A stretch of 64,000 nt of DNA from a virus. This document shows, piece by piece, positions 4,208 to 63,644 of the stretch (the stretch's first letter is position 1; the number at the start of each line of letters is the position of its first letter). The notes under the pieces are model-generated. The model saw only the letters and a program-made list of their open reading frames with translations, was not told where the DNA came from and ran no database searches. Position numbers and translations under genes: made by a program. The stretch covers positions 9,454 through 73,453 of IMG/VR virus record IMGVR_UViG_3300032893_000030; one strand, written 5' to 3'.

Positions 4208-4596
4208 ACTTATCCAAAGGAATTCCGCTCGAAGATCGAGTGTTGATCAAACCAAAAACTCCTGAAGAAAAAGTAGGAGATTTTTATCTCGGTGAAAAGG
4301 ATATCGAGAAACCCGTTGAGGGTGAAGTCATCTCGGTAGGTCCAGGTGCCTACAGTTACGGTGAAGAATTGATGGGGTCAATCCTTGAAGGAATCAATGT
4401 TCTTATTGAGAACAAAGGGTTGCAACCCATTCAGCGGCCATATTATCAGGCAATGAAGGTAAAGCCTGGTGATTATGTGTTGTACGGTCGTCATGCCGGC
4501 ACCAAACTAAGCATCAATGGAGAGACGTATCTGATGATTCGCCAATCGGACATTTTCATGATTATCGAAAAAGAGGTAGATTCGATAAACCAATGA
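4204..4596 (+). CDS. groS: co-chaperonin GroES/Cpn10-like (extended, gp31-like size)
   Basis: 130 aa. Overlaps groEL stop (ATGA). PLEDRVLIKP...GEVISVGPG...VKPGDYVLYGRHAGTKLSINGETYLMIRQSDIFMIIE aligns with GroES. About 35 extra residues relative to bacterial GroES. Confidence 0.85.
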   Translation: MNLSKGIPLEDRVLIKPKTPEEKVGDFYLGEKDIEKPVEGEVISVGPGAYSYGEELMGSILEGINVLIENKGLQPIQRPYYQAMKVKPGDYVLYGRHAGTKLSINGETYLMIRQSDIFMIIEKEVDSINQ

Positions 4597-6519: not shown

Positions 6520-7921
6520 AGGATTTGATACGGGTAATGATTGAAGTTGTGGTGTGCGTAATACATGGAGGCAGAATAGTATTTATCTGGCAATTTTGTC
6601 CGCGTACAGAAATCACATCATGGTAACAACCGGCAAACTGGCAATCATTTTGTACTACCTCAATATTGGTAAGATCAGCATACCGATAGGCGGGGTTTAC
6701 AGATCCGAAAAATATCATCGATTTTACTCCGCATGCTACCGCAATGTGAGCTGGGCCAGAATCCAATCCGATAAAGAAATCCGCTCCGGCGATCACGAAA
6801 CTCAACATAGCCTCTGTCATAGTTTCCATCTTAACACCCACGCCATGGTCCTCTCTTCCAACCTGAATCGCGATGTATCCTAATGATCGGACAAATTCGC
6901 CAATACGTTTCCAGTCAACGCCATGAACATATCGGTGCGGCATGTCATTATGGTCCAGATGGAATACGATGTACTTTTTGAATAATCTGGTTTTATCAAC
7001 CTTGATGTTCAATCGAGAATTTCTCAGCGGACCCTTTTTGACCTTAGAGAACTGATAAAATGACTTTAGTACTAATTGCTGTGGAGTGACCTCATAGGTC
7101 ATATCCAGGTTGATAGTGAGTGGATTAAACAATGTGCCTTCCACATCATCATAGAATTCAATCGGGAAATAGTGATTTTTAAAGAGAGCATAGTTCTTCT
7201 CAGTTGTCTTCAAAATTATCCGATAACCATTGCTGTAATACCATTCCATGACTGGCTCCAGCATGATCACATCACCCATCGCCATGTGCCGGACAAATAC
7301 TACAGGCGGTTTCCATGGGGGATGAAAATAATTATGGAATCCAAAAGTTGGTCCTTTTGGGGCATGTAGTTCATAGCTGAATGAATGAGCAAGATCATCA
7401 GGGGCATAACGTATACCTTGCTTTTCCAGATAACCTCTGTACAGCCGACAGATTATTTCATCCTCTGGAGAACAGATATCAATATTGGTATCACTGATAA
7501 GCAGGTCATGCAATTTTTTTGTACGCATTGAAAATCCACCATTGCCGACATTGCGGCCGTCACGGTACATCCATGGAGCGCCGATGTAATCGTACTCAAG
7601 GAATCTGTCATCCCAGGCGTCCGCATTGATGACATAGCCATCATGCTGGATGATCATTACATGAGAAGTCTCAATATACTTACCCATTTCTTTGACGATA
7701 TAGCGATTGTAATCGACTACCGATCGAAATGGTTCAATCAACACGCACTGAAAGGCCGTGGATTCAAATTGGATGTCACAGAACAAAATCACTTTCGCAG
7801 GTGCAATCTGCATGAGTGTTTTGTGAATGGCGGTGATTGTGTTGCCGTAATCTTTGGTTGTGACAGCAACCACTGTGACTTCTGGAAGCTGTAGGCGATT
7901 ATCCTGCGAGTTCTCTGACAT
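6497..7921 (-). CDS. two-domain glycosyltransferase: N-terminal DUF5672-like domain fused to GT9 (heptosyltransferase-like) domain
   Basis: N-terminal half has YDYIGAPW...GNGGFSMRTKK, which is DUF5672-like. C-terminal half has MAMGDVIMLEPV... and FFIGLDSGPAHIAVACGVKSMIFFG, the GT9 signature. The longest ORF starts at 7996 but would overlap the upstream gene by 98 nt. In-frame ATG at 7921 preferred. Confidence 0.7.
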   Translation of the reverse strand: MSENSQDNRLQLPEVTVVAVTTKDYGNTITAIHKTLMQIAPAKVILFCDIQFESTAFQCVLIEPFRSVVDYNRYIVKEMGKYIETSHVMIIQHDGYVINADAWDDRFLEYDYIGAPWMYRDGRNVGNGGFSMRTKKLHDLLISDTNIDICSPEDEIICRLYRGYLEKQGIRYAPDDLAHSFSYELHAPKGPTFGFHNYFHPPWKPPVVFVRHMAMGDVIMLEPVMEWYYSNGYRIILKTTEKNYALFKNHYFPIEFYDDVEGTLFNPLTINLDMTYEVTPQQLVLKSFYQFSKVKKGPLRNSRLNIKVDKTRLFKKYIVFHLDHNDMPHRYVHGVDWKRIGEFVRSLGYIAIQVGREDHGVGVKMETMTEAMLSFVIAGADFFIGLDSGPAHIAVACGVKSMIFFGSVNPAYRYADLTNIEVVQNDCQFAGCYHDVISVRGQNCQINTILPPCITHTTTSIITRIKSFVNGKQQ

Positions 7922-8744
7922 AAGATTCAAAACAGCGTTGATAATAAAAGTCGTATGCTTTTTCTCCAGTTGGAATATTGCATGGCGCAAAGTCACATGC
8001 TTCCAGTATTCGAGGCACTTTTATTGCCTCAGCGAGTGCCATGCACAGTGATTGGTTGCCGATAAAAAATGAAGAAGATTTTATGACGATGGCTAATTCC
8101 AAAAAATCATTCACTCTCAGGAGTGGAATTTTGAGGTTGAATTTTTCACTGAAATCGCGCCACTCATGATCCAGGCCTGCAAAGAGAAGGCGCGACTCAA
8201 GCGGCTTCAAAAATGAATAATTGATTTGCTCATTCCGATATCGCTCCGTGCGATTGATGATGATTGTGTTTGGCGGCACCATATCATTGGTTGGTACAAA
8301 AAGCCATGGCTTTGAAATATCACAAGCCATTTCAGGATAAATGTAGAATGGCCAGCGCGTGATACAGCCATACGGTTTGTTGATGTCCACATCCGGATTT
8401 ACCATCATGTCCAGATCGATGTATGTCTTGCTTTGATCTATCTCAGGGATGAACTGATATTCTGGTGTCCCTTCATTTTCTCGCCGGTAAGTGAAGGTAC
8501 TCACTTCAACAATCCAGTCTTGCGACAGGAGAAGAGGCTTGAGCATTTTGACGTTGTGTTCTTGCAAAAGAATTCCATCGTCAGGATGCTTTGCTCCTTC
8601 ATAAAAGAACCCGATCAACCCTAATCCTAGATGAAGATGCGCTGGCCGATTAAACTTCCGGCAAACTTCCCGGATGCCGGCTAGTGACTGAATCAAATCT
8701 CCTGGTAGAAGAGAGAATTTGAAGTTTATCGGATCGGTTGTCAT
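7899..8744 (-). CDS. GT9-like glycosyltransferase (heptosyltransferase homologue)
   Basis: 281 aa. C-terminal LLFAGLDHEW...FFIGNQSLCMALAEAIKVPRILE matches the GT9 nucleotide-sugar binding region. Confidence 0.65.
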   Translation of the reverse strand: MTTDPINFKFSLLPGDLIQSLAGIREVCRKFNRPAHLHLGLGLIGFFYEGAKHPDDGILLQEHNVKMLKPLLLSQDWIVEVSTFTYRRENEGTPEYQFIPEIDQSKTYIDLDMMVNPDVDINKPYGCITRWPFYIYPEMACDISKPWLFVPTNDMVPPNTIIINRTERYRNEQINYSFLKPLESRLLFAGLDHEWRDFSEKFNLKIPLLRVNDFLELAIVIKSSSFFIGNQSLCMALAEAIKVPRILEACDFAPCNIPTGEKAYDFYYQRCFESYVRELAG

Positions 8745-8765
8745 TGTAGCAATTTTCGCTTAATT

Positions 8766-9059
8766 TTGATTCAACTTAAAAAAAATTCTATGGCACGTTC
8801 AATTGATGTCCTTGTTTACCACTTTGTTGCCGGCGATCCTAACGGAGGACCCGCGAAATTGCTGGGTACGAGGCGCAGAGGTATCTCCGTGGATAACATC
8901 TTGGCACTTGATTCAGTCAATGTCCGAGGCGGGATGTCCGTCTACGGCCTTCCCATGCTGTATGGGAAGATTACATTGAAGCAGCCAGGATTGAGCCAGG
9001 AACTCTTCGTCATCGACACGGTTCAAGATCTCCTCAACAAAGAGAATACAGGAAACTAA
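8766..9059 (+). CDS. hypothetical protein (terminator-insulated small gene)
   Basis: 97 aa ORF. Probable start ATG 8790 (MARSIDVL...). AT-rich upstream region containing TAATTTTG. Followed by two hairpins. Confidence 0.4.
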   Translation: MIQLKKNSMARSIDVLVYHFVAGDPNGGPAKLLGTRRRGISVDNILALDSVNVRGGMSVYGLPMLYGKITLKQPGLSQELFVIDTVQDLLNKENTGN

Positions 9060-9066
9060 AACGAAA

Positions 9067-9090
9067 ATGCCGGAGCGTAATCCGGCATTT
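9067..9090 (+). terminator. hairpin ATGCCGGA-gcgtaa-TCCGGCAT
   Basis: 8 bp GC-rich stem immediately after the stop of the 8766..9059 gene. Short T stretch follows. Confidence 0.35.
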
Positions 9091-9125
9091 CGTGGCAACT
9101 TCCTCATTATTTGTTTTTCGGTTGT

Positions 9126-9160
9126 GCCTTCGGGGTGGTTCCCGAAGGCTTTTTTGTTTC
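9126..9160 (+). terminator. rho-independent terminator
   Basis: GCCTTCGGG-gtggtt-CCCGAAGGC followed by TTTTTTGTTT. Textbook intrinsic terminator. Confidence 0.7.
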
Positions 9161-9212
9161 ATCAAAGCTATACAAAAGTTTTTCATATTCAAATGTTCAT
9201 TATTTTAGTGGG

Positions 9213-9941
9213 ATGATTTTTTTGGAGGATTATTTCATTGTTCGGCCTGATTCATTCTATGCCGAGAAGAAAACCGCAACGGGACTTGAAACCCTCAATA
9301 CAGCATGGATCATGCGCGGTGATCGCGATGAAAACGAATTCAAATGCCTTAAAGGAACCATCATTGCCTCCCCGATCGGGTATTCATTGAACCGGTATTC
9401 GCCAATTGATCGCGGACTTCCAAATCATCGGCTATTCATCAGCCATGACCGTCTTCAGTATCGCGAGAATACCGGAGCCAACATTGAGAAAACCCCCTAT
9501 CATCCGGGAATGATGCTTGATTTCAAATACCTGAGTTTTCAAGATTATGCCCAGCGCGTAACAGCAAAAAAGGGTGATCAAGTCTACTTTCATCCACATG
9601 TAACCGAACAGGAAAATCTATTTCCGGATGGCACCTATAAAGTGCGTGTTGATCAATTGATCTGCACACTCGATCCTATCTGTCCACAAGGCCAATATGT
9701 ATTGATCCAGCCGGTTATGGAATCCGAAGATGAGATCACCATGGGTGGATTTCAAATCAAAATTGAGGCGCAAGTAAAAGCACTCCAGGGAATTGTGCGG
9801 TACACGAATAATGGGATGGTGAGTGCTGGAGATCATGTAATTTTCGAAGAGGCATCTGATTGGGAAGTTGACATTGAGGGTGAAAAATTTTATGTGATGC
9901 AAATGGAAAATCTCCTGATGAAACTAAAACCAGCAGTATGA
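9213..9941 (+). CDS. tandem (double) Cpn10/GroES-fold protein
   Basis: 243 aa from ATG 9213. Table ORF starts at 9111 but that would include the terminator. C-terminal half ITMGGFQIKIEAQVKALQGIVRYTNNGMVSAGDHVIFEEASDWEVDIEGEKFYVMQMENLLMKL aligns with GroES (TAGGIVL...GEVLAVGNG...VKVGDIVIF...IDNEEVLIMSESDILAIV). N-terminal half has a weaker repeat of the same pattern (FIVRPDSFYAEKKTATGL...KGTIIASPIG...KKGDQVYFHPHVTEQENLFPDGTYKVRVDQLICTL). Confidence 0.5.
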   Translation: MIFLEDYFIVRPDSFYAEKKTATGLETLNTAWIMRGDRDENEFKCLKGTIIASPIGYSLNRYSPIDRGLPNHRLFISHDRLQYRENTGANIEKTPYHPGMMLDFKYLSFQDYAQRVTAKKGDQVYFHPHVTEQENLFPDGTYKVRVDQLICTLDPICPQGQYVLIQPVMESEDEITMGGFQIKIEAQVKALQGIVRYTNNGMVSAGDHVIFEEASDWEVDIEGEKFYVMQMENLLMKLKPAV

Positions 9942-10315
9942 TAAAGCAACTTGATTATGTGGTTTTTCCCAGCGAAGAAAAAACCATTTCAGTGGAAGAC
10001 GATGATCAATATGGCGGTGCCCATCGCTATGTGATCAGGAATTGCCGAGGTTTCAATGACGGTAAAACGGAATACATCGAGCAGCCACAAGTCATTCAGT
10101 TCGTCAAGAAACTTGATGACGGGACTATTATTGATGGATTACAATCTGAGCAGCTCGCCCTGGTTCTCTTTGATCGTGCCAAGAAACTCAATGAACGATT
10201 CCCAAGTACACAGAACGAGACGATGCTTGAAGGATTGAAAATTTTTCTTCAGGCATGTCAGGATCGTGTACAGGAAAGAATGTCGCGCGGAGTAATGGGC
10301 GAACTCAAGAAGTAA
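9938..10315 (+). CDS. hypothetical protein
   Basis: 125 aa. ATGA overlap with the upstream gene. No family recognised. Confidence 0.45.
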   Translation: MIKQLDYVVFPSEEKTISVEDDDQYGGAHRYVIRNCRGFNDGKTEYIEQPQVIQFVKKLDDGTIIDGLQSEQLALVLFDRAKKLNERFPSTQNETMLEGLKIFLQACQDRVQERMSRGVMGELKK

Positions 10316-10322
10316 AACAAAA

Positions 10323-10358
10323 AAGCCCGAACTTCAATCTGAGTCAGGGCTTCTTGTA
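10323..10358 (+). terminator. weak hairpin after + strand gene
   Basis: AAGCCC-(18 nt)-GGGCTT preceded by an A-run. T-tract poor. Confidence 0.25.
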
Positions 10359-10427
10359 AATTACTTGCCCAAAGTGGTGAGGAGCCAAATGGACTAGGTT
10401 GAGACAAATGTAAGTAAATATTTGATT

Positions 10428-10694
10428 ATGTTGCACGAAGAACTTTTGGAACACCTTGAACGCGAACTTGATCTTTTACACCAAAAAGTAAAACACATGG
10501 CACTTACCATCAATGATTTGAGTACCAAACTGGATACTCTTCAATCGACAGTTGATCAGAAATCCTCAGAAGTTACCGCAGCACTCGCGGACCTGAAGAA
10601 TCAAATTGCCAACTCATCCAATCCTGATGTCCAGGCGCTTGGAGACAAGGTAGATGCGATTGCTGCTGCTGTTGCCGGCATACCAACAACGTGA
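10428..10694 (+). CDS. coiled-coil hypothetical protein
   Basis: About 88 aa. Heptad-like LEHLERELDLLHQKVKHMALTINDLSTKLDTLQSTVDQK. Table start 10422 is TTG; ATG at 10428 preferred. Confidence 0.4.
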   Translation: MLHEELLEHLERELDLLHQKVKHMALTINDLSTKLDTLQSTVDQKSSEVTAALADLKNQIANSSNPDVQALGDKVDAIAAAVAGIPTT

Positions 10695-10891
10695 GTCATC
10701 AGTTCTCTTTATTTGGATATCAGCGGCCGCGCGCGAAAGTCCCCATAAGCGCTGAACGGATTCGGCAGATACAATCTGAGATTGAATCAGGCAAGGATAA
10801 GGACGCGCTTGATCACATGCGATTGCTTCGTGAGTCTCTGGAGAATTACGAACGCAGGATCAGAACAAAATCACTTGTTGAGGGTGAATAG
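10691..10891 (+). CDS. hypothetical protein
   Basis: 66 aa. ATGA overlap with the upstream gene. Converges on the - strand structural block. Confidence 0.35.
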   Translation: MSHQFSLFGYQRPRAKVPISAERIRQIQSEIESGKDKDALDHMRLLRESLENYERRIRTKSLVEGE

Positions 10892-11395
10892 AACCTGGGT
10901 GTTGGATGCTGAAGCATCATAAGATACCGGTGCCCCGCCATTCTGGAATTCAGCATTTGTTGGAAATGTTTGTTCCTGAAGAACAGCCGCAGCGGATCCC
11001 AAACTCTGAGCTTTGATTCTCCGATATGGTTTCGGGATTTTGTAGACCGAAATCCCAGATTGTGAACTGGGGAATGCCGCTTCCAGCGTCATCCGGTTTT
11101 GGCTCTTGACAAACAAAATCCTGCGCGCATACAGGCACAAGCCATCAGTGATGTAATCGTTTGGATTGAACTCGTCCTGAAACTTGGTATTGGCATCACC
11201 GAGTACTTCTTTACCCAAAGAGGCATCTGTATTGAATGTGCTCAGGGTTCCTGATTTGTAGACCCTGATCGGCAAAACACCTTTGTTGGGCACCGTCCCA
11301 AGAATAGGATGAGATGTGGATCCTGAAGGACCGACAACGACCCGTATGGCTTCTATGTCATCATGTATGAGGGTCGGATTCAAGCCTGTTGCCAT
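10871..11395 (-). CDS. hypothetical virion-module protein
   Basis: 174 aa. Last gene of the long - strand block. Confidence 0.5.
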   Translation of the reverse strand: MATGLNPTLIHDDIEAIRVVVGPSGSTSHPILGTVPNKGVLPIRVYKSGTLSTFNTDASLGKEVLGDANTKFQDEFNPNDYITDGLCLYARRILFVKSQNRMTLEAAFPSSQSGISVYKIPKPYRRIKAQSLGSAAAVLQEQTFPTNAEFQNGGAPVSYDASASNTQVLFTLNK

Positions 11396-11420
11396 AAGCG
11401 TAATTTTAGATTAAAGGTAC

Positions 11421-14400
11421 TCAAAAGTTTGGTTTGGAGGACTTCTTAACCTGGTTCATCTGCCACTTGAGTAGATCCACATCTATTGGCAGGGTCACTT
11501 TTGTCTTCACATTAAGTCCAGTATTCGTCAGGAACTGATCACGGCCAAGGTCAGCGGCTTTGTCATACAGAAAGCGAAGTGTTTTCTTGCGCGTTTCCGG
11601 GGAATCATTATCCCAAGTCTTGATATATGAGGATGCGTAATTTGCCCGTTGCTGACCAACGTATTGCGCCAATAGCGAATATTCATCTCCGGTAAGTTGA
11701 CGGCTTTGGCCATTGTAAGTGATCTTTCGCGTTGGACTTTGTGGCAACCAGTCGCCACTGTAATCGGTTTTCCAAGCCTCATATAATTTGAATCGGAAGC
11801 CATCAGTATCAACAGCACGGAATTTTGATGGATCGAATAAATAATAAAATGCCTTGTTACGTCCTTCGGGGGCACCGGTTATCTTGTCACCCCAGATATT
11901 GACTTTTGCCGGCAGACTTTCACCAATGAATAGTTTGGTCTTGTAGGTATTGACGAGTTTCTTTCCAAAGGAGTCATCCTTAATATCCCTGGAATAAGTG
12001 TCCGATGCCCTGCTGATAGATGCAACAACATTTGGAAGGGCAATCGCGCCAAGCGTTTCGGTGGTCTTCAATAACCAGGCCTGCGTTTTCTCATCTCCTC
12101 CGTCTCGAATGGCCTCAAGCAATGTTGATGTACCAGAAAGGAAAGTTTGATCAAGCGCATTGGAAGCTGTCCTGATGCCAGTTTCGGAGATGTCGGTCAG
12201 ATATGTCTCGAGTCCGCCATGCATACTGCCGGTTTTGGCTACGCGATCTTTGTACAGATTGGAATAATTATCGAATAGCACACCAAGCACACCCATCCGC
12301 TGATAGCTGACCCAGATGTCATCTTTTTTTGTTTCCCAACCGTGTCCAGACAGGCCTCGCGATATGGCCGAAGCATTGATGGAATTCGCTGGCGGTGCCC
12401 CGCCTTCAGCCTGGAAGTCACGTTTCTTTTTTTCCTTGTCATCATCCCCGGTCAAAAGTCCACGCATGAATAGACTCGAGGCGACCGACCAAATCATTGT
12501 GCCTACCATGGCCTTTCCGGCCAGTACGCTTGCCTGACGTTTATTCCCAAGATTTGCCTGATGAATGGCCATTCCGAGCGTGATCGGCGGTGCTGCATAT
12601 TGCAGAGTTTCCGACATCAGGTTCCATGGTGTTTTAATGAAGAGAATCTGCGATTTCAATAGCACCTTCGCGGCACCGCCAAGCAATGGACCGCCCTTCT
12701 CCTCAATCATATTGAGAAATGAGGCAATTCCCCGCTGCAGGTTCTGTCCAAAGTGCCCTTGTTGTTGAAATGTTGATTCCTCCCCAGCTTTCGTGATCTC
12801 GGCCTGTGATTCTTCATCCGGCAGAGCAATGAATTTCTCCGCCTCTGCACCGGTAAGTCCTTTCAATTTTGCCAATTCATAGGCTTTTGCCATTTCAGCC
12901 GCGCGCCGCCATGGTTTATCCCCAAGATTTAGTGCTCGGAACATGGCTTCTGCCTCCCAACCTATGGTGCCCTCAATGGCATCATTAATCTTTTGGGAAA
13001 GTGATCGATCGGCCTGCACCCAACGCTCAATGGCGCGTCCAGGATTAAAGTTTGAATGGATCTCTCTCAGATTGCGTTCATTGGCTTGGGCACCTGTCTT
13101 GAGTTGATTAAGACCTTCAATTGTGCCACTCCATCCGCCCTTAAAATATCCTTTCTGTGCAGCTACAAGATCAATCGTCCGATCCTTGAATGTTTCCGGT
13201 AGCATGCCGAGTTTAGCCATCTGTGACATCATGTAATCAGCGAACTGCCCGCTGGCGGTGGACATAAACCGGATTGGCTGAAATGTCAGATTGTAAAAGA
13301 CGTTTGATACTAAAGAAAGCACCGACATGACATTACCCTGCATTATGGCAATTAATGTATCGGATAATTTATTCGGGGTGGTAGCGAAATTCTGCAAGTG
13401 CTGATTTGCCTGAATTGCCGCTTCACGTAATTCTTTCAACTTAGCAAATCCTTCAGGAGTGAAGTTTTCGCGTAGGTCTTTTTCAAATTTCTCAGCCGTT
13501 GAAATTGTTTTGGCTAATTCACGAACTTTTGCTTTGTCTTCAGCAGACAATTTGCGGTATCCCAATTGTTTTGCATACAGATCATTGAACTTCTGATCGG
13601 TAAGTTTACCCTCATTGTACGCATCAACAACCGACTGAATGAAGTCTTTCTTTTTCTTTCCCTTGATCTTTGGTGTTTCTACTGCTTGCTCATTGATATT
13701 TTCGGCCTTAACTGGTGAAGTCAATAACTGTTCGACCCCTGGCTGGACTGCCTGTTTGAATTTTTCTTCATCGAATGGCTCCTTTTGATTGGCCTTGATG
13801 TAGTCGATGCCGGCTTGAATGGCATTTGCGACATCCGCCCCCGTCAGTATGGCTTGCTTAATGATGTCCAGCGAAGCATTCCAGACATGCGGCAATACAC
13901 CAATCGGAAGAATAGTTGCCGTGGCAATGCCGCCCTTGGTGTTGATCTTGAGTTTATCGAAGAAGTCACCGATTTGCTTCTTTTTTGACTCACTGATCAG
14001 TTTTGCCTTCTCAAGACGTTTGCCGACCTGCTCTTGAACTCCCTTTTCTACCAAGCGCCTGATTTCCGCTTCAATCTGCTGCTTGGACATTGCCACCGCA
14101 TTTTGAATAGGGCCAAGCAGATTATCGGCCTGTTGCCGGTTCTGCCGCTCGACGGCCATGACAATTTGGTCCTCTCCAGACTGTAGAATCTTCTTCCAGA
14201 ATTTACCGGTATTGGATGTGCGGCCGGACTGCATCAGGAAATTCTCAGCCCAGAAAGCCAAATCCACGGCCTTTTCGTATAGAACGGTTTTTTCCTGTGG
14301 ATCCGTTGCCGCCTCAGCCTGCCGGGTGTATTGGTCGAATAATTGTCCCGCCATCACACTGCGCGTGTCTCCTGATATTCCATTGCTGGTATCTCTGATT

Positions 14401-49059: not shown

Positions 49060-49474
49060 TTTCCCAACTGATAACTCCCATCTGTCTGTTTGATGCTATT
49101 TTCAAGACATAATAAAATCTCTCCAACAGTTCTTCCTGCTCCTTTGCCTTTGTGGTTAAGGCGGTGAGTTTATATTCAAGGTCTTTCCTCTTGTTGAGTT
49201 CATCCATGTCCCGTTCCTGCCAACGCTCAGTCTCTCTATCAAATTTAGAGCCTAAGGCGTGGTATTCCTTCTCGCTTGTCATCAGTTGCAGCCGTAGGTT
49301 TTGATTCTCCTTCTTTAAGGATTCAAGGTCGGCGGTCAAAGAATCAATCTTTCGTGATTGAAGCGAATGATCCTCGGAGATTGTATTTGCCGCTATTATA
49401 GTCTCTGCTTTCAATCTTTTGAGTTCATCCCGTTCATTAATCAGTTGTTGGATGGTTTGTTCCTCTGTCATGGC
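48992..49474 (-). CDS. coiled-coil protein, paralogue of 61281..61709
   Basis: Shares DLESLKKENQNLRLQL and a ...QMG(V/K)(I/V)(S/N)W(E/N)... C-terminal block with the + strand gene at 61.3 kb. Start chosen at MTEEQ (49474) because the 20 nt upstream of that ATG are identical to the upstream region of the 61111 ORF. Table ORF extends to 49525. Confidence 0.5.
   Translation of the reverse strand, partial: AMTEEQTIQQLINERDELKRLKAETIIAANTISEDHSLQSRKIDSLTADLESLKKENQNLRLQLMTSEKEYHALGSKFDRETERWQERDMDELNKRKDLEYKLTALTTKAKEQEELLERFYYVLKIASNRQMGVISWEIGNDVLQAYETYKGKKNHDRNP
49284..49331. repeat. inverted DNA repeat copy A (partner 61334-61361 and 61414-61444)
   Basis: The reverse complement contains CGACCTTGAATCCTTAAAGAAGGAGAAT immediately followed by CAAAACCTACGGCTGCAACT. 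The same two blocks occur in direct orientation at 61.3-61.45 kb separated by a 52 nt insert. Confidence 0.7.
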
Positions 49475-49487
49475 GTGGGTAGGGTTA
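49464..49487. repeat. inverted repeat of gene-start region AACCCTACCCACGCCATGACAGAG (partner 61096-61119)
   Basis: 24/24 nt identity in reverse complement. Includes the ATG of both paralogous loci. Confidence 0.7.
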
Positions 49488-49745
49488 AAATTGAATTTTA
49501 GGTTGGCGATAAAGCATTTCGTCAATAGAAACTTCGAGCACTCGACAAATAGCCATTACTTCCTCAAGGGTAGGCTTGCCTCTTCCTTCTTCAATATCCG
49601 ACACTCTTTTCAACTGTCTTAATTCGGCTCTTTCAGAAAGTTCTCTTGAGGTTAGTCCCCGAAAGGCTCTTACTCTAATTATGTTTGTACGAAATAAAGT
49701 CAGGTCCGATTCTTTCATAAACAAATTTGAAATAGTTTGGAACAT
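49485..49745 (-). CDS. XRE-family helix-turn-helix transcriptional regulator (Cro/CI-like)
   Basis: 86 aa. RAFRGLTSRELSERAELRQLKRVSDIEEGRGKPTLEEVMAICRVLEVSIDEML is a canonical HTH_3 pattern. Confidence 0.7.
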   Translation of the reverse strand: MFQTISNLFMKESDLTLFRTNIIRVRAFRGLTSRELSERAELRQLKRVSDIEEGRGKPTLEEVMAICRVLEVSIDEMLYRQPKIQF

Positions 49746-49838
49746 TGTAGTTTTGTCTCTTCATCTCCTTCCAGAGAGGAAGTTCAATCGGAATTAAAAT
49801 CAAGAAGTAAAAGGGGTAGAACATTATCTTAATGATTT

Positions 49839-50084
49839 TCATTTTGTCTCCTGTTTAGTTTCTTGTTTGGTGATGGTGAAATTGTTCTTCAAATATTCAA
49901 GAACATAATCCACTTGTTCTGAAAACTCATCTTCTTTGTCCACCCCATAGTTCTCGTTCACATACTCAGTGATTCTGTAAATTAATTGTGCATTATTTTT
50001 CCAACCTGACTTAACGTCAATAATTCTTGGTTCAAATGGATGTTTCATTGTTTTCTTGTTTGGTGATGGTGGAAAGGAACTCAT
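49839..50084 (-). CDS. hypothetical early protein
   Basis: 81 aa ORF in the packed early array. The real start may be an internal Met. Confidence 0.35.
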   Translation of the reverse strand: MSSFPPSPNKKTMKHPFEPRIIDVKSGWKNNAQLIYRITEYVNENYGVDKEDEFSEQVDYVLEYLKNNFTITKQETKQETK

Positions 50085-54853: not shown

Positions 54854-55399
54854 TTAAACCGGTTGTGTGTTGTCCTGGACGGCCTGAACCCTGTTGCCCT
54901 TTGGTTTATAGATCCGAACATACTTAGCCGGCAATTCCTTGCGTTCACGATCCATTATTTCGCCAGCAATCCGGTCATAAAAGTCCAAAATCCGCTGCCC
55001 CTTGGCTGTTATCGCAATCGCATAGCCGTTGAAGGCCTTAACCCACTCAATACACCCCAATTCAATACATTTTTCTATTCCCGTTCGGATCCTATATTGC
55101 CAATTGCTTCGATGTCCTGACCATTTTACAACATGGTCCAACGCGGCACCCTCCTTGTTTCGGATTGCTAAAAACGTCCACGTTATCCCTAACGCTTCCA
55201 ATTCCTTGGCACCCACCCCAAACTGCGCAGCTATTGCCCTTGTTGCCTTCGCGTCAATTGCTTTATTGCCTGGATAATACTGACCGTACGTAAGCCTTTC
55301 TTTGCGGGAAACCTTCACCCCATTGCCTGGCAAGCTTTGTCCCGCGTTTGCCGCGTCCGTTTTCCCTTCAGTTGAGGTGTTTTGCCCGTTTTCCGTCAT
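54854..55399 (-). CDS. hypothetical protein (first gene of the leftward early operon)
   Basis: 181 aa. Preceded on the - strand by TTGACA...ATAATA-like promoter elements in the 55.4-55.5 kb region. Confidence 0.45.
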   Translation of the reverse strand: MTENGQNTSTEGKTDAANAGQSLPGNGVKVSRKERLTYGQYYPGNKAIDAKATRAIAAQFGVGAKELEALGITWTFLAIRNKEGAALDHVVKWSGHRSNWQYRIRTGIEKCIELGCIEWVKAFNGYAIAITAKGQRILDFYDRIAGEIMDRERKELPAKYVRIYKPKGNRVQAVQDNTQPV

Positions 55400-56004
55400 C
55401 TTGTCACGCTGTTATATAATTTGTATTATGTTAAGTAGCTTTGTATCGCGCTGATAATCAGTAATTTCTATTATGTTCAAAAAATCTTTTTCGTGTCAAA
55501 CTGGCACCCGGGCTCGTAAAAGATCGATTGCCCCAACCGAAAAGGCAGGGGGGACTTGGATACGCCTGGCCGGTGTGTGAGTTCGCGGGGATCATGGGGG
55601 TGAAGATATGGTGGAGGGTGGAGAAAGTCAACACCACTCGGATTGGGAGTGCTTGAAGGCAGGCTGGGTGAGCATAGCGTAAACATATTAGCGTAGATAT
55701 GTCACACAGTTACGGTTACGCTTTTAAGGTGGTGATTTCTACCCGTAACCAGAACCGTAACCATGCGTTTTTGACCGTTTCCTATATCTTTTATTCTTCT
55801 TTAGTTACACTTAAGAGAATAAAGAGATAAGAGTATAGATAATGGGGCTAGTATAGAGTCATAAATATATAAATGTTGAGAGTGAAAAACGCCGTAACCG
55901 TAACCATGATTTCAGGCTGATTTGAGGGTTTTTGGCGTTTTGGGCGAAATAAGCGTAACTGGAGGAAAATAAAATGTAGAAATATTTGGAAAGTATGTCT
56001 ACGT
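55400..56004. promoter_or_regulatory. divergent early control region with repeated GTAACC motifs and G-rich island
   Basis: About 600 bp without credible ORFs between diverging gene blocks. CCGTAACCGTAACCATG at 55892-55908. CGTAACCAGAACCGTAACCATG at 55744-55766. Inverted copy AGTTACGGTTACGC at 55708-55721. AAAACGCC ... GGCGTTTT inverted pair. Sigma70-like TTGACA/ATAATA on the - strand near 55.45-55.5 kb. TACGTTTG (TAnnTTTG-like) near 56000. Confidence 0.45.
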
Positions 56005-56088
56005 TTGTGTTATGTTTACATCAACAATTCAGGACAACGATTCGGGGAACAGTTAAAGACAACTCAATGGCACAATGAAGACGCAGGT

Positions 56089-56595
56089 ATGACCATACAG
56101 CATGATGATCGGATTTATTATCAGGTGTACGCGGTAGCGCGCAAGCTGTTCACTACACTTGGAGATGTGCGGACAAAGGAGATTTATGCGGAGTGTCAGG
56201 CTGCTGGGTTGCGGATTGATTACAACCGGATCACGGTGGCTGTGCGGGAGATTATGGCCGACATGGTGGCGCGCGATGAGGCTTCCAAGTCGGGATATGG
56301 TAAGTGGCGGATCAGCCATGTAGAGCGTCCCATGCCGGATGCGGGGATCATCGTTGGACGGGTCAGGGAGTTGATTGCTCCACTGTTGCGGCAGGGCGGT
56401 GTGATCCGGCCATCGAGTGCCTATGAGTTGTGCAAGGGGAAGGTGCGCTTCTGCCATGTGGTGGATGCTTTGCAGGTGATCATGCCGGCCGTGGGAGGGA
56501 AGGAACTGTCGCCCCTATGGTGGGAACTGTCGGCACCGGCCACAAGGTCAACCAGCGGGGCAGACCAGGAAGAAACAAACCAAGAGAAGATATGA
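56089..56595 (+). CDS. hypothetical protein (GC-rich island)
   Basis: Table ORF begins at TTG 56005. The first in-frame ATG at 56089 has AGGT spacing upstream. GC-rich codon usage unlike the early region. Confidence 0.4.
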   Translation: MTIQHDDRIYYQVYAVARKLFTTLGDVRTKEIYAECQAAGLRIDYNRITVAVREIMADMVARDEASKSGYGKWRISHVERPMPDAGIIVGRVRELIAPLLRQGGVIRPSSAYELCKGKVRFCHVVDALQVIMPAVGGKELSPLWWELSAPATRSTSGADQEETNQEKI

Positions 56596-57558: not shown

Positions 57559-57905
57559 TGGCGATGAATTGGCTTAACAGAATACGTTTGCGCTTCCTTG
57601 CCACCGTGGACATGATTGTCCTTGAACGTGGATACAGCTACGTGCGCATTCCGGATGGGAAGCATGCCGATGTGGTTGCCGGAATCTATCACGATGACGG
57701 ATATGAACTCTACGACATCGGCACTGTCACCTATGCGTATTGGATGCGCCGACCGGTTGATTACGTGCAGGTAGTGCATGAGTCGATCATCACGGGGCCA
57801 GTGTCCTTGTGGTACGAAGGTATTCCGCTGGAGTTGACACCGGGGCGCTGGCGGGTGCGCAGGGTTGGAAAGAGTATATCGATAACGAAAATAGCGATTG
57901 AGTAA
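57555..57905 (+). CDS. hypothetical protein
   Basis: 116 aa. Confidence 0.4.
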   Translation: MMAMNWLNRIRLRFLATVDMIVLERGYSYVRIPDGKHADVVAGIYHDDGYELYDIGTVTYAYWMRRPVDYVQVVHESIITGPVSLWYEGIPLELTPGRWRVRRVGKSISITKIAIE

Positions 57906-59829
57906 TAATGTGGATACTACCGCCAGCGATCAAAGCATCATTTCGTTCTGCACGGGGATTGGAGGACTTGAACGAGGAATTGCCCTTGGTGGGTGTCGCG
58001 TTAAGCCAGTCTGCTATGTGGAGATCGAAGCCGTCCTCTGCGAAAACATGGTTGCAGCGATGCAAGCGGGCGCGATGGATGCAGCGCCTATCTGGACGGA
58101 TCTTAAGACTTTCCCTGCACGACAGTTTCACGGACTGGTGGACGGCATCATTGGCGGCTACCCGTGTCAGCCCTTCAGTTTGGCCGGCAAGCGAAAAGGA
58201 ACTGACGATCCGCGACACCTTTGGCCGTTTATACGAACTTATGTCGCGGCAATACGACCTGTTTGGTGCTACTTCGAAAACGTCGATGACCACATCACCA
58301 TGGGATTCGATCTTGTTTACAAGGACTTATCGGCGATGGGTTACCGCGTTGAGGCTGGAATATTCTCAGCGGCAGAGGTTGGCGCGCCACATGAACGACA
58401 GCGGCTATTCATACTGGCTGTCGCCCAGGGCGAGCGAGATCCCCGAAGACTACGCGCAATATCTGGCGCGTATGCGCGCTTCGAACAACCCGAAGAACAA
58501 CACCAAGACCAAGGAAGGGAATCTATCGATGCAGGTGTACCGGCAGTGGCCGACATCGCATGCGAGTCCGCAGGAGAACCGGTCGATGGGCGAGACTCCG
58601 AGTCAGAAGCAGGGCAAACACGGGGGATATCTGGCCAGCGAGGCGGACAAGTGGACCACCCCGACATCGCACCAGCAGAACACACAGTATCAGCAGGGCG
58701 GCACTCCGCTTCAGGCGCAGGTGAACCAGAAGAAGTGGAAGACGCCGGGAGCCAGCGAGACGGAGGGCGGGGCGATGAAGGAGTTGACGGGGGACGCGAA
58801 GTACAAGCTCAGGGATCAGGTGAATTGGCCGACACCGGATACATTCGACAAGGGGAATCCGAACATAAATCAGAAGAGCAACAAAAAGAACATACCGAAG
58901 AATTTTCACGAAGCAATAAACTGGCCGACCGCGAGCGCGCGGGACTTCAAGGACACACCGGGGATGAGTATGGATCGGGACGGGAAGGAACTTGGGAGGG
59001 TAGATCAACTGGCGCGGTCGGTTTACCACCATGGCCAGCCGGACCAGGAGAACAGCAGTACGAGTGGGAATACCCACGAACTAAACCGAGGCCGATTAAA
59101 CCCAGCGTGGGTAGCACAACTTATGGGGATGAGAATTCAAACAATTTGGTTTCTGTAAATTATGTGGCCTACACCACCAATAAAACAAGGACCATTGAAG
59201 AACTGCACAGGGTGTGGCAAGCAATTGATCAGAAAGCGGTTCAAGGATGGTCGATTGGAAGATTACAGTGTTTTTTTGAGGAGGAAATTCTGCAATCGGG
59301 AGTGTTACAAAAATTTTCTCCGTTCGGGATACATTCATCCGCTGACGGCAAGAAAATATTCAAGAGAATTCAGAACGGAGGCATGCGAGATGTGCGGCAC
59401 GGACCACTTGTTGGGGATACATCACAAAGACAGGAATATTTGGAACAACTCCGAGGAGAATTTGCAGACGCTATGTGCATCCTGTCATACGAAATTACAT
59501 TGGCAAGAAGGCAAGAAAGGCCGACCAGCGATAGCAGTGAAGGCATGCAGCGTTTGTGGGATAGTCTCAAAGACGCGTGGTGGGATGTGCCAGAAACATT
59601 ATCAGCGATTCAAGCGGCATGGAAGCCCGTTTCTGAAAAAAATAATTGGCAAGAACAGATTGCAAGTGCTTATAGAAGTTACAGATTAGAATTTAACGAT
59701 GAATTCAGAGAAGATATTTTAAGAGCACTTGGAAACGCAGTAGTGCCGGCACAGGCCGCGAAGGCATGGATAGAATTATGGGAGAAATTTTTAACCAATG
59801 AAGACGCTTACAATTCGCGAAAAAGGTGA
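57898..59829 (+). CDS. DNA (cytosine-5)-methyltransferase, mosaic/disrupted (frameshift at CCCC run; HNH gene inserted in motif IX)
   Basis: Frame of 57898 (TTG, or GTG 57910) carries motif I FCTGIGG, motif IV GGYPCQPFSLAGKRKG, motif VI ENV and motif VIII GAPHERQRLFILA, up to about 58440. The +1 frame then carries six W-x-TP repeats and RLNPAWVAQLMGM (motif IX-like) until TAA 59158. Motif X (ILRALGNAVVPAQAAKAW) is back in the first frame at 59690-59829. The 643 aa ORF stays open throughout only because the out-of-frame middle is GA-rich low complexity. Confidence 0.6.
   Translation: MSNNVDTTASDQSIISFCTGIGGLERGIALGGCRVKPVCYVEIEAVLCENMVAAMQAGAMDAAPIWTDLKTFPARQFHGLVDGIIGGYPCQPFSLAGKRKGTDDPRHLWPFIRTYVAAIRPVWCYFENVDDHITMGFDLVYKDLSAMGYRVEAGIFSAAEVGAPHERQRLFILAVAQGERDPRRLRAISGAYARFEQPEEQHQDQGRESIDAGVPAVADIACESAGEPVDGRDSESEAGQTRGISGQRGGQVDHPDIAPAEHTVSAGRHSASGAGEPEEVEDAGSQRDGGRGDEGVDGGREVQAQGSGELADTGYIRQGESEHKSEEQQKEHTEEFSRSNKLADRERAGLQGHTGDEYGSGREGTWEGRSTGAVGLPPWPAGPGEQQYEWEYPRTKPRPIKPSVGSTTYGDENSNNLVSVNYVAYTTNKTRTIEELHRVWQAIDQKAVQGWSIGRLQCFFEEEILQSGVLQKFSPFGIHSSADGKKIFKRIQNGGMRDVRHGPLVGDTSQRQEYLEQLRGEFADAMCILSYEITLARRQERPTSDSSEGMQRLWDSLKDAWWDVPETLSAIQAAWKPVSEKNNWQEQIASAYRSYRLEFNDEFREDILRALGNAVVPAQAAKAWIELWEKFLTNEDAYNSRKR
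59162..59689 (+). CDS. HNH homing endonuclease inserted within the C5-methyltransferase gene
   Basis: 175 aa. CEMCGTDHLLGIHHKDRNIWNNSEENLQTLCASCHTKLH is a complete HNH motif. C-terminal CSVCG...GMCQKHYQRFKRHG zinc module typical of phage HNH enzymes. GC content drops sharply at about 59100 relative to the flanking methyltransferase sequence. Confidence 0.8.
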   Translation: MWPTPPIKQGPLKNCTGCGKQLIRKRFKDGRLEDYSVFLRRKFCNRECYKNFLRSGYIHPLTARKYSREFRTEACEMCGTDHLLGIHHKDRNIWNNSEENLQTLCASCHTKLHWQEGKKGRPAIAVKACSVCGIVSKTRGGMCQKHYQRFKRHGSPFLKKIIGKNRLQVLIEVTD

Positions 59830-60667: not shown

Positions 60668-60844
60668 ATGGGTATCAAGACTGAGAAAGCCTACATCGTG
60701 GTTTGCGACAAATGCGGAGATGGATTGGAGTTTGATGCGGAATATACTCCGGTGTTCTTCGACAGGGACGAGGCTAAACAGATAGCCATTGATTCCGACT
60801 GGGTATTTGTTGGAAGGAAATGTTTTTGTCCAGATTGCAAATAA
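60668..60844 (+). CDS. small zinc-ribbon-like protein (58 aa, below ORF-table cutoff)
   Basis: MGIKTEKAYIVVCDKCGDGLEFDAE...GRKCFCPDCK. CxxC...CxxC pairs. Confidence 0.3.
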   Translation: MGIKTEKAYIVVCDKCGDGLEFDAEYTPVFFDRDEAKQIAIDSDWVFVGRKCFCPDCK

Positions 60845-60864
60845 GAAACTAAACAGGAGACAAA

Positions 60865-61029
60865 ATGAAAAGGGATGATGGTTATTATTGGGTAAAATCA
60901 AAAGAAAATAATTGGTGGATTATCGCTTATTGGTCACTTGAAATGAATTGCTTTTACGTGGATGGATTCTATACGCCTGAAGGTGACTTTCTCGAAATCA
61001 ACGAAACTAAACTTGAAGAACCAAAGTGA
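60865..61029 (+). CDS. small hypothetical protein (54 aa)
   Basis: Preceded by AGGAGA 5 nt upstream of the ATG. MKRDDGYYWVKSKENNWWIIAYWSLEMNCFYVDGFYTPEGDFLEINETKLEEPK. Confidence 0.35.
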   Translation: MKRDDGYYWVKSKENNWWIIAYWSLEMNCFYVDGFYTPEGDFLEINETKLEEPK

Positions 61030-61110
61030 AAACGAAATACTCACAAGCGGGTTGTATTAATTGTCCGCCCGCAAAACCTTACGAAATTATCAGATAACCC
61101 TACCCACGCC

Positions 61111-61284
61111 ATGACAGAGAAAGAAAAAATAGAATTGCCAAAATACAAATCAGTAGAGCAACAAATGCAGGATATCATTTATCATTTTGCGTCTGCCAGT
61201 GTCAACGGACTTCCTGCAATCCCGGAAAAGCATTTCAAAGATTTAGGAACAATGATTTTGAATAAATTAAGGATAAGCAAGTGA
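61111..61284 (+). CDS. small hypothetical protein (57 aa) sharing its start region with the 49 kb paralogue
   Basis: ATG preceded by AACCCTACCCACGCC, identical to the sequence upstream of the MTEEQ start of the - strand gene at 49474. GTGA overlap with the next gene. Confidence 0.35.
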   Translation: MTEKEKIELPKYKSVEQQMQDIIYHFASASVNGLPAIPEKHFKDLGTMILNKLRISK

Positions 61285-61709
61285 AACTGGATGAAGAGAA
61301 ACATGAGGCACCTGAAAATGGTCCTCCTACTGACGACCTTGAATCCTTAAAGAAGGAGAATGAGAATTGGAAACAAATTGCGAAGGACATTGAACACGCG
61401 AATCATGGATTAGAGAAGGAGAATCAAAACCTACGGCTGCAACTAGAAACAGCGGATAAGTGGAAGGACCAAAGATTGGAGTTGCAAAAAGAATACGATT
61501 CTAAAGTACAGTCGCATGAAAATCCAGACTGGCGTGAAGGATATTTTGATGGACTCAGAAGTTCATTGATCCAGCTTGAAATGATGGATGAAAAACTTTC
61601 TGTGTCGCGCGCGATCATTAAGGAATTGCTACGTGCGCGTGACACCCAAATGGGTAAAGTCAATTGGAATGTTTTAAATGCACTTCTGTCAGCACATGAA
61701 GAATTGTAA
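61281..61709 (+). CDS. coiled-coil protein, paralogue of 48992..49474
   Basis: GTG start. DDLESLKKENENW...LEKENQNLRLQLE and a C-terminal MGKVNWNVLNALLSAHE block shared with the 49 kb gene. Confidence 0.5.
   Translation: MKLDEEKHEAPENGPPTDDLESLKKENENWKQIAKDIEHANHGLEKENQNLRLQLETADKWKDQRLELQKEYDSKVQSHENPDWREGYFDGLRSSLIQLEMMDEKLSVSRAIIKELLRARDTQMGKVNWNVLNALLSAHEEL
61334..61444. repeat. inverted repeat copy B (two blocks 61334-61361 and 61414-61444 matching 49284-49331)
   Basis: 28 nt and 31 nt exact matches to the reverse complement of the 49.3 kb copy. Separated here by a 52 nt insert that duplicates GAGAAGGAGAAT. Confidence 0.7.
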
Positions 61710-62973: not shown

Positions 62974-63644
62974 CGGAGCATCCGATCATATTTTCAACAC
63001 CCATGGTCCAAGCCATTCTGGAAGGACGCAAGACGATGACTAGGCGCATTATCGGCAATGGGATTAATTTCCTCCCCGATGATACCGAATTTCTGCGCTT
63101 TCAAAATTACGCGGATGGAACCTGCAGGGCTATATTCCACAATGGTGATGAACCGGGAAATGTCAAATGCCCGTATGGAAAAGCGGGTGACATTCTGTGG
63201 GTGCGCGAAACATGGTCTAAGACCAACCGAAAAGAAGTAATTATTTTTAAAGCACCTGAAATGCCGGAGCCAACTGCATTCAGGTGGAAACCATCCATTC
63301 ACATGCCGCGAAAATTCGCGCGTATCTTCCTGCGTATTGATCGCATTGGAGTCGAACGATTGCAAGCGATAAGTCCTGATGATGTAAAAAAAGAGGGCGT
63401 TCGGTATCGGGTTATTGAGAAAGGCAGTGACATGGTTTCTCCATTATGGCGTTCTGGTGACAACGGAGCAATTGAGTTTATGCCAAAAGGATTTAAGGAT
63501 CGCCCGCTGAATGCTGACGAATTGATGTACGCGCACTGGGCTGAACTCTGGTGTGACATCAACGGACGTGCGTCCTGGGATGCAAACCCGTGGGTGTGGG
63601 TAGTGGAATTTTCGGTAATAAGCACAAATGAGAAATTAAAATGA
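62970..63644 (+). CDS. ASCH/PUA-like domain protein
   Basis: 224 aa. N-terminal PMVQAILEGRKTMTRR matches the conserved start of phage ASCH-domain proteins. Confidence 0.5.
   Translation: MTEHPIIFSTPMVQAILEGRKTMTRRIIGNGINFLPDDTEFLRFQNYADGTCRAIFHNGDEPGNVKCPYGKAGDILWVRETWSKTNRKEVIIFKAPEMPEPTAFRWKPSIHMPRKFARIFLRIDRIGVERLQAISPDDVKKEGVRYRVIEKGSDMVSPLWRSGDNGAIEFMPKGFKDRPLNADELMYAHWAELWCDINGRASWDANPWVWVVEFSVISTNEKLK

Follow-up and report, generated by a model that had tools for sequence, protein, structure and literature searches.

What does the one sizeable non-coding interval of a large tailed phage genome contain, and what might it do? The question was raised by a stretch of viral DNA of 64,000 nucleotides (nt) from IMG/VR record IMGVR_UViG_3300032893_000030 (positions 9,454 to 73,453), referred to here as the window, in which positions 55400-56004 are non-coding and lie between a leftward gene (54854-55399) and a rightward open reading frame (ORF) that runs from a TTG at 56005 or an ATG at 56089 to 56595. 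The original prediction, made from the sequence alone, took this interval for a divergent control region with operator-like GTAACC repeats and a structured G-rich island. It is the largest non-coding gap in the window, all others being no longer than 340 nt, it separates the leftward from the rightward gene block, and promoter-like elements are present on both sides. While the observation is confirmed, its reading as an operator switch with a structured G-rich RNA is only partly right, and the most distinctive and informative element of the gap had been missed, namely a dif-type site for the recombinases XerC and XerD at 55409-55436. We propose, as a suggestion for which the arguments are evenly balanced, that the gap is a conserved multi-part cis-acting hub made up of the dif site, a leader with a leftward promoter (P_L), an iteron region and a rightward promoter (P_R), with roles in Xer recombination and iteron binding. 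The coordinates of all features are collected in Table 1.

The site has the format of published dif sites, an 11-nt arm, a 6-nt central region and a second 11-nt arm, and it is the sole match in the window to all 13 of the 13 informative dif positions (ATAA-N6-TTATGTnAAnT). The XerC arm CTGTTATATAA ends in ATAA, which gives an inner dyad ATAA/TTAT, and the XerD arm TTATGTTAAGT agrees with the Escherichia coli arm TTATGTTAAAT at 10 of 11 positions, rising to 11 of 11 in the related loci L015, L111 and L113. In the dif table of Carnoy and Roten, the site reads GGTGCGCATAA-TGTATA-TTATGTTAAAT in E. coli, ATTTCGTATAA-TGTATA-TTATGTTAAAT in Nitrosomonas and AACGCGCATAA-TTTGCA-TTATGTTAAAT in Dechloromonas (PMC2731167). 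Because the arms and the 11-6-11 format match these tabulated sites, 55409-55436 is, judged by its sequence, a dif-type site. The 20-mer TATAATTTGTATTATGTTAA was found in 46 species genomes, once per locus, as opposed to about one expected by chance, and these genomes belong to Betaproteobacteria, Bacteroidota (11 genomes), Bacilli and archaea. The betaproteobacterial loci read AATTGCG-TATAA-TTTGTA-TTATGTTAAAT. On the two long replicons from which positions were taken, the 20-mer lies at 51% of the 3.6-Mb Persicobacter chromosome and at 44% of Pseudoalteromonas chromosome 2, given as fractions of the replicon length. The bacterial and archaeal matches read like chromosomal dif sites.

In all family loci retrieved, the site is coupled to the leftward gene. 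The closest relative that keeps this gene is L015, a 72.9-kb IMG/VR contig, in which the leftward protein is 28% identical to that of the window and the ~70 nt upstream are 84% identical, including ~30 identical bases. An 18-mer from this identical run matched 34 IMG/VR contigs, about 20 of which extend the match. An exhaustive HMMER search of the leftward protein family, P0001, yielded 72 cluster representatives, and in every family locus retrieved, that is the window, L015/L101, L108-110 (P0009), L111 (P0002), L112 (P0003), L113 (P0005), L114 (P0025) and L115 (P0073), the dif-type 28-mer lies at the start codon or within ~10 nt of it, the distance in the window being 9 nt. The proteins are 25-50% identical across these loci and the site is nearly invariant; the sole neighbour conserved across the relatives is this adjacent gene. 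Other searches were less productive: IMG/VR scans with either flanking protein singly returned nothing, a metagenome scan with a two-protein alignment returned the L015 phage only, a profile search in a word-indexed database gave four proteins only, and a DNA-similarity search for relatives of the gap in 50,697 phage records gave no match. In Xer recombination the central region must match between the recombining partners. It reads TTTGTA in 7 of the 9 loci, the exceptions being L114 (TTTATG) and L115 (TTACTA). Since the hexamer is kept in this way although no other part of dif differs as much from one bacterial species to another (PMC2731167), its conservation would be easier to explain by matching to a host dif than by resolution between identical phage sites.

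The predicted structure of the P0001 protein is that of a small regulator. AlphaFold2 modelling with a 48-sequence family alignment gave a mean predicted local distance difference test (pLDDT) score of 82.8, reaching ~98 over residues 45-150, and predicts a disordered N-terminus of ~44 residues, a winged helix and a long C-terminal helix. The best 50 Foldseek matches from the PDB all belong to the MarR or SarA family (E ~1e-3, template modelling (TM) score 0.4-0.6), and neither Pfam (E<=0.01) nor PHROG gave a match; because the fold matches and a Pfam match is lacking, the predicted protein is called MarR-like here and not a member of the MarR family. With MarR/SarA autoregulators it shares the predicted fold and the location of its gene, which borders a divergent intergenic region containing a conserved palindrome, and it differs from the MarR family in the missing Pfam match, in the disordered N-terminus and long C-terminal helix, and in the invariable coupling of its gene to a dif-type site.

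Next to the site, on its XerD side, lie a conserved palindrome and, after it, a second core that resembles the XerD arm. The palindrome is kept as CTGA(T/C)(A/T)ATCAG in four of five aligned loci, reads TTGATTATCAG in L113 and is degraded in L115, and the second core is CATTATGTT-like in the five aligned loci and more diverged in L115. An IMG/VR scan for a XerD arm combined with the palindrome gave four unrelated matches. The conserved ATG of CATTATGTT opens a small ORF (window 55473-55580, + strand; L108 2806-2937, - strand; L015 2573-2752, - strand) that is probably spurious; it is annotated by gene callers in L108-110, and its length is 35, 43, 59, 21, 17 and 7 codons across the loci, the conserved DNA being read in different frames. 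Sigma-70-like elements, which had been predicted for the gap, are indeed more frequent than expected (5 matches against 1.7). The strong match TTGACA-N18-CATAAT at 55499-55470 was set aside, as only CATAAT and not the -35 hexamer is conserved in the relatives.

Further dif-type sites were encountered outside the family. Among the dif loci of Nitrosomonas and related Betaproteobacteria (L022, L031, L033, L057, L058, L091, L093) the flanks are shuffled, and L093 combines the left flank of L022/L058/L091 with the right flank of L031/L033/L057 in a mosaic joined at the dif site, which looks like the module exchange expected of a recombination site. A dif-type 24-30-mer also lies in the non-coding region of the microvirus-sized contigs L021 and L041 (~5-6 kb), probably also of L035 (8.4 kb), and of Microviridae records in INPHARED (H28, H29, H38, H55); judged by their sequences, these contigs fit the Bacteroidetes-associated microviruses of the literature. 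The exact site is present in the unrelated large IMG/VR contigs L017, L018, L024, L029 and L038 (28-188 kb), in several of them within a few kb of the contig end, and these could be proviruses bounded by dif or further large phages with a Xer site. Another IMG/VR contig (L118, 4259 bp) carries two dif-type sites ~55 nt apart in direct orientation.

The second part of the gap is the G-rich island, which is real, 55500-55705 containing 36% G and 55% GC compared with 45% GC in the window. Its conserved blocks are TTGCCCCAA (55530-55538), a G6 run (55549-55554), GTGAAGATAT and GAGAAAGTCAA; beside the last three, a conserved block is also given as TTGCCCAA. The proposal that it forms a small RNA or a G-quadruplex found no support: it folds no better than shuffled sequences on either strand (z 0.18 and 0.33), the alignments of four to five homologous loci give consensus energies of -6.3 and -3.9 kcal/mol with no gain from covariation, Rfam gives no match in the island at gathering or relaxed thresholds, and there is no canonical G-quadruplex motif anywhere in the window. 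What the relatives do share is the pattern TTG(A/C)..-N17-TA..TT, which includes the putative P_L and stands 217-246 nt from the family ATG in all five loci with enough upstream sequence. The island thus appears to be the promoter and a ~190-nt leader of the leftward operon, conserved as DNA- or leader-level sequence and not as a structured RNA. A role of the G run (GGGNAGGG-like in L108, L113 and L114) as an FtsK-orienting sequence found no support, as by the E. coli orientation rule it points away from the dif-type site.

The GTAACC repeats on which the original prediction was built are likewise real, lie far above chance and recur in the relatives; it was in their spacing and in the inverted copy that they had been misdescribed. 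The suggested motif count over the rest of the window places 7 of 18 CGTAAC copies in the gap (0.17 expected, Poisson P~7e-10), namely at 55709-, 55715-, 55744+, 55756+, 55893+, 55899+ and 55954+, a strong clustering that is not random. The heptamer CGTAACC occurs nine times in the window, five times within the 192 nt of 55714-55905 (shuffles: mean 2.6, maximum 6), and GTAACCGTAAC occurs exactly twice, at 55709(-) and 55894(+). The hexamers of the middle copy are 6 nt apart (CGTAACC-AGAACC-GTAACCATG) as opposed to the 0-4 nt given before, the inverted copy is CGTAACCGTAACTG and lacks the CATG tail, and the copy at 55954 is a fourth, single one. The inverted pair AAAACGCC (55887-55894) and GGCGTTTT (55934-55941) is present as described; in addition, the gap holds three of the nine GCGTTTT copies of the window, the third at 55765, and two TGATTT(C/G)AGG units. 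Because they are far above chance and recur in relatives, the repeats are very probably protein-binding sites. A search of IMG/VR with the 16-mer CGTAACCGTAACCATG gave 10 matches, none otherwise similar to the window, which were attributed to chance.

The arrangement of these repeats is better conserved than their sequence. In the window, the two putative promoters bracket ~365 nt that hold both CGTAAC clusters and the 110-nt AT-rich core; transcription from them is predicted to start near 55596 on the minus strand and near 56013 on the plus strand. On the right, the window, L015 and L108 each have a TAnnTTTG box at a distance of 590-624 nt from the family ATG and shortly upstream of the rightward gene, and in the window two GTARAYAT copies are inverted across this -7 box, so that the GTARACAT pair overlaps the putative P_R. 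L108 shares this layout, its units being (C/T)GTAAC(C) or GTAAACC and its core rich in AT and in palindromes, and L113 has repeats of the same kind in a layout that is partly visible, the contig ending inside the core. L015 has GTARACAT units, three of them in tandem at the place equivalent to 55679-55700, and a 34-nt inverted repeat in its core, and shares the block GCTGATTT..GGG.TTTTGG of the right cluster with the window. In L115 the two-cluster layout is kept with ACTCAGTTAAC units, and its core is AT-rich or palindromic as in L108 and L015. Since the layout is kept while the repeat sequence differs by lineage, a co-evolving DNA-binding protein is the candidate partner of the repeats. A correlation between recognition-helix residues of the MarR-like protein and the iteron sequence was also looked at and is suggestive at best.

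That the repeats are the operators of a repressor-controlled switch for divergent early promoters, with the G-rich island as a small RNA or G-quadruplex, is possible but on the whole unlikely. In favour of a switch are the highly non-random repeats set between diverging gene blocks, the neighbouring winged-helix regulator gene, the typical action of MarR-family regulators in divergent intergenic regions, and the overlap of the inverted GTARACAT pair with the putative rightward -7 box. However, the CGTAAC clusters (55709-55762 and 55893-55959) overlap neither predicted core promoter, being placed ~75 nt past the putative P_L (55603-55631) and upstream of the putative P_R by 45-110 nt, and they consist of tandem hexamers on both sides of a 110-nt AT-rich core and not of short dyads. 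The RNA or quadruplex part fails for the reasons given above, and the two repressors that had been put forward fare little better, the XRE-family protein at 49485 having weak HTH_3 matches only and the ribbon-helix-helix-like protein at 63641 no family match, neither with a link to the motif. Compared with the CI/Cro switch of phage lambda, the gap likewise has divergent promoters and repeated sites between two early gene blocks, but no CI-/Cro-like pair was identified, the main repeats are off the predicted core promoters, and with ~600 bp and an AT-rich core the region is far larger than the tripartite lambda operator.

Seven CGTAAC cores in two clusters beside 110 nt of 28% GC, set between divergent promoters, fit an iteron-type origin better than operators. 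Short direct and inverted repeats in two clusters next to an AT-rich segment are also found in lambda ori, in oriV of F, R6K and pPS10 and in R1 parC, and such origins and centromeres likewise combine a lineage-specific repeat sequence with a conserved architecture. Unlike in these systems, the phage units are very short (6-7 bp cores) with a spacing of 6 and 12 nt, and no Rep-type initiator, DnaA box or partition gene was identified near the repeats. We therefore hold the origin-like reading of the iteron region only tentatively, at somewhat less than an even chance, and regard a regulatory array as possible, though on balance improbable.

The window covers most of a ~73-kb tailed phage genome with genes for a large terminase, a portal, virion proteins and a GroEL/GroES pair, and in relation to it, independent assemblies (73.3 and 73.5 kb) show a circular permutation. 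The terminase is 55-60% identical to that of a few uncultured IMG/VR contigs (L011-L016), and only ~24% identical to its nearest cultured relatives, podophages of the Flavobacteriia (Flavobacterium, Cellulophaga, Tenacibaculum). A Shine-Dalgarno match, even a loose one, precedes only 11 of 74 gene starts, upstream regions are A-rich, and TAnnTTTG boxes stand upstream of several genes; because of these phylum traits and the terminase relatives, the host probably belongs to the Bacteroidota. No integrase or recombinase family of Pfam is present in the gene calls covering window positions 44854-65399 and -7391..14207, the rest being the structural block, a negative that relies on precomputed Pfam matches, which a very divergent recombinase could escape; nor is there an integrase family around the relative L115. 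Together with the dif-type site, this suggests that an integrase-less phage uses the XerC/XerD of its host.

According to the proposal, host XerC and XerD would act on the dif-type site, with the palindrome and the second core beside it. The point of crossover would lie between the leftward operon on one side and its promoter and leader on the other, and only the circular, excised form would then have the operon under its own promoter; by the same chemistry, dimers of the circular genome might be resolved instead. The iteron region, probably not transcribed, would be bound by a phage-encoded, lineage-specific protein, for which the adjacent winged-helix protein is the most parsimonious candidate. 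The bound iterons would organise an origin-like or regulatory nucleoprotein array between the divergent promoters, the right one bracketed by its inverted GTARACAT motifs, and transcription from both promoters could help to melt the AT-rich core.

A more specific version, which we consider doubtful, is that these ~73-77-kb tailed phages, probably of Bacteroidota, are integrative mobile elements that exploit Xer (IMEXs) and that lysogenise by Xer insertion at the host dif, whereby integration cuts the operon from its promoter. The leftward operon cut off in this way would comprise the MarR-like gene, early genes and, further downstream along that strand, the genes of the terminase and the virion; excision would re-arm it, and the MarR-like protein would be a Xer accessory or directionality factor, in a role like that of XafT, or the iteron-binding protein. 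Known Xer-exploiting viruses in the literature searched are small and non-tailed, that is inoviruses, microviruses and double-jelly-roll phages (PMC3091885, PMC12715192, PMC11630473); among them are integrase-less microvirus proviruses of Bacteroidetes flanked by dif-like sites (PMC3091885). The phage resembles IMEX viruses in carrying a dif-like 28-mer in a genome without its own integrase and in a XerD arm identical to that of host dif sites. As in Vibrio IMEXs, in which attP is flanked by the regulator genes rstR and xafT (PMC12715192), its site is directly flanked by a small regulator gene, and it has a second dif-like core close by, like BMV4-6 and CTXphi (PMC3091885). It differs from them in being a ~73-kb tailed phage with terminase and portal genes, in the position of its site between an operon and the promoter of that operon, and in having no documented integrated copy; its flanking protein, which was not compared with RstR or XafT, is MarR-like and without a Pfam match.

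Rather unlikely, too, is that the dif-type site only resolves multimers of a circular genome or plasmid-like prophage, as cer, psi and pdif do, and never integrates. The site lies inside a phage-sized, circularly permuted genome in all assemblies, no integrated copy was found, and the phage encodes RecT and an exonuclease-like protein, with which recombination would make dimers. Like ColE1 cer, pSC101 psi and Acinetobacter pdif, the phage has an extrachromosomal dif-like core with an adjacent conserved accessory sequence, here of ~130 nt. The accessory sequences of cer and psi lie on the XerC side and bind ArgR/PepA or ArcA, whereas the conserved phage module lies on the XerD side and contains a palindrome suited to a winged-helix dimer. 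Moreover, identical partner sites would let the central hexamer drift freely, whereas 7 of the 9 loci, with proteins only 25-50% identical, have it unchanged, and it is, unlike in plasmid resolution sites, conserved across diverged phages. The precomputed Pfam calls include neither partition nor plasmid replication genes, no relative of the terminase is present in 72,556 plasmid records, so that the idea of a phage-plasmid gains no support, and a phage that packages by headful or from concatemers would have little need to resolve dimers.

Contig ends provide a further line of evidence. The contigs L101, L111 and L112 break off exactly where the XerD arm ends on its outer side, which would fit a site that has more than one right-hand junction partner in those samples but is suggestive only. 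L105 and L106, from two samples, both stop at exactly 55566, and L114, from another phage of the family, stops at the homologous ...GCGCC. These ends could mark a module or mosaic boundary, a physical terminus, or an artefact of sequencing, assembly or coverage in G-rich sequence. A pac, cos or terminal-repeat boundary at ~55566, with the two gene blocks transcribed inward from the ends, would account for the coincidence of the stops in two samples and in a different family member, and 55566 is also the end of the block best conserved with L015. Such a terminus is nevertheless improbable: the assemblies L097-L099, L103 and L104 read straight through the position, the two samples may not be independent, G-rich sequence can lower coverage, and strain mosaicism at a module boundary gives the same pattern. 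Finally, a dif-like sequence unused by Xer, either a relic of recombination with a host dif or an AT-rich promoter or translation leader that happens to resemble dif, would agree with its position directly before a start codon in a genome with A/T-rich, Shine-Dalgarno-less initiation regions and with its overlap with sigma-70-like hexamers on the + strand, but is very unlikely given the match at all informative positions, the identity of the 20-mer to dif-like sequences in dozens of species, the near-invariance of the site, which a relic would not keep while the adjacent protein drops to 25-50% identity, and the absence of such a leader from other phage genes.

Several points weigh against the hub as proposed. 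No integrated copy was seen, all contigs of family members that were checked being no longer than 77 kb, and dif is without an adjacent family gene in each of the 46 genome loci, which come from a shallow survey, one genome scan with a single 20-mer. Neither a CI-like repressor nor any other clear lysogeny gene was identified. The promoters are assigned by consensus matches only, and the host phylum is deduced solely from the traits named above. As regards an origin, the cumulative GC skew has its minimum near 55 kb, which agrees with one but is confounded with the switch in transcription direction, no initiator was identified nearby, the primase-helicase gene being ~10 kb away, and the window contains no DnaA box with <=1 mismatch. 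The contig ends at the site edge could likewise stem from a shared ~30-mer that breaks k=31 assemblies when related phages or a host dif co-occur, and the three contigs that end at the 55566 position are not accounted for by the hub.

Table 1. Features in and around the non-coding gap, with positions in the window.
Feature	Position	Strand	Description
First leftward-block gene, P0001 family	54854..55399	-	181 amino acids; MarR/SarA-like winged-helix protein (predicted)
dif-type XerC/XerD core site	55409..55436	+	CTGTTATATAA (XerC arm) - TTTGTA (central) - TTATGTTAAGT (XerD arm)
Palindrome CTGATAATCAG	55451..55461	.	Candidate site for a dimeric winged-helix protein
Second XerD-arm core, (C)TATTATGTT	55469..55478	+	45 nt from the first; CATAAT on the minus strand; direct-repeat family D4
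G-rich island	55500..55705	+	36% G; putative leader and promoter-like element of the leftward operon
Recurrent contig end/module boundary	55566..55567	.	After ...GGATACGCC
Putative P_L, TTGACT-N17-TATCTT	55603..55631	-	Promoter scan, consensus match
Left GTARAYAT pair, GTAAACAT and GTAGATAT	55679..55700	+	4 of the 9 GTARAYAT copies of the window lie in the gap
Left iteron cluster, inverted unit CGTAACCGTAAC	55709..55720	-	
Left iteron cluster, direct unit CGTAACCAGAACCGTAACCATG, then GCGTTTT	55744..55771	+	
AT-rich core	55776..55885	.	110 nt, 28% GC; candidate DNA-unwinding element
Right iteron cluster	55886..55959	+	AAAACGC, CGTAACCGTAACCATG, TGATTTCAGG and TGATTTGAGG (11 nt apart), GGCGTTTT, CGTAAC at 55954
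Inverted GTAGACAT and GTAAACAT pair	55995..56019	-	Brackets the rightward -7 box (putative P_R)
Putative P_R -7 box TACGTTTG	56000-56007	+	Consensus match, TAnnTTTG type
First rightward ORF	56089..56595	+	168 amino acids from ATG; gene callers start at TTG 56005

The first rightward protein is an ORFan, for which a homologue search returned only the protein itself and Pfam and PHROG gave no match; its AlphaFold2 model is unusable (pLDDT 44.6). Elsewhere in the window, the Cpn60 (GroEL) and Cpn10 (GroES) pair is joined by a second, longer Cpn10-domain protein (2609-4596 and 9213-9941). A C5 cytosine methyltransferase of 643 amino acids is encoded at 57898-59829, family profiles matching its first ~220-250 residues only, and a long ORF (57908-59158) overlaps its gene in another frame. 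The leftward and rightward blocks are linked by four inverted-repeat segments (49284-49869 and 60838-61444) that are 32-38 nt long and 89-97% complementary. Among them are identical sequences from the upstream and start regions of small genes (…AAACTAAACAGGAGACAAAATG, …CCCTACCCACGCCATG), a sign that the two arms may carry paralogous small genes. By coordinate arithmetic, the ends of contig L098 map to 49285 and 61443, where they coincide with one inverted-repeat pair.

A dif-type Xer site next to a MarR-like gene in a family of tailed, integrase-less phages would extend the theme of IMEXs and Xer sites, as far as function can be read from the genomes. If the proposal is true, the exploitation of Xer extends to the Caudoviricetes, that is to large tailed phages without an integrase, and the site provides a sequence handle for host prediction, as its central hexamer must match the host dif. 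We know of no origin mapped in this phage group, for which the iteron arrays, specific to each lineage and set between conserved divergent promoters, are candidates. A shared ~30-mer that breaks short-read assemblies at the site would mean that such phages are systematically fragmented in metagenomes. With the site placed between an operon and the promoter of that operon, a simple physical switch suggests itself, by which the topology of the genome may be coupled to the expression of its genes.

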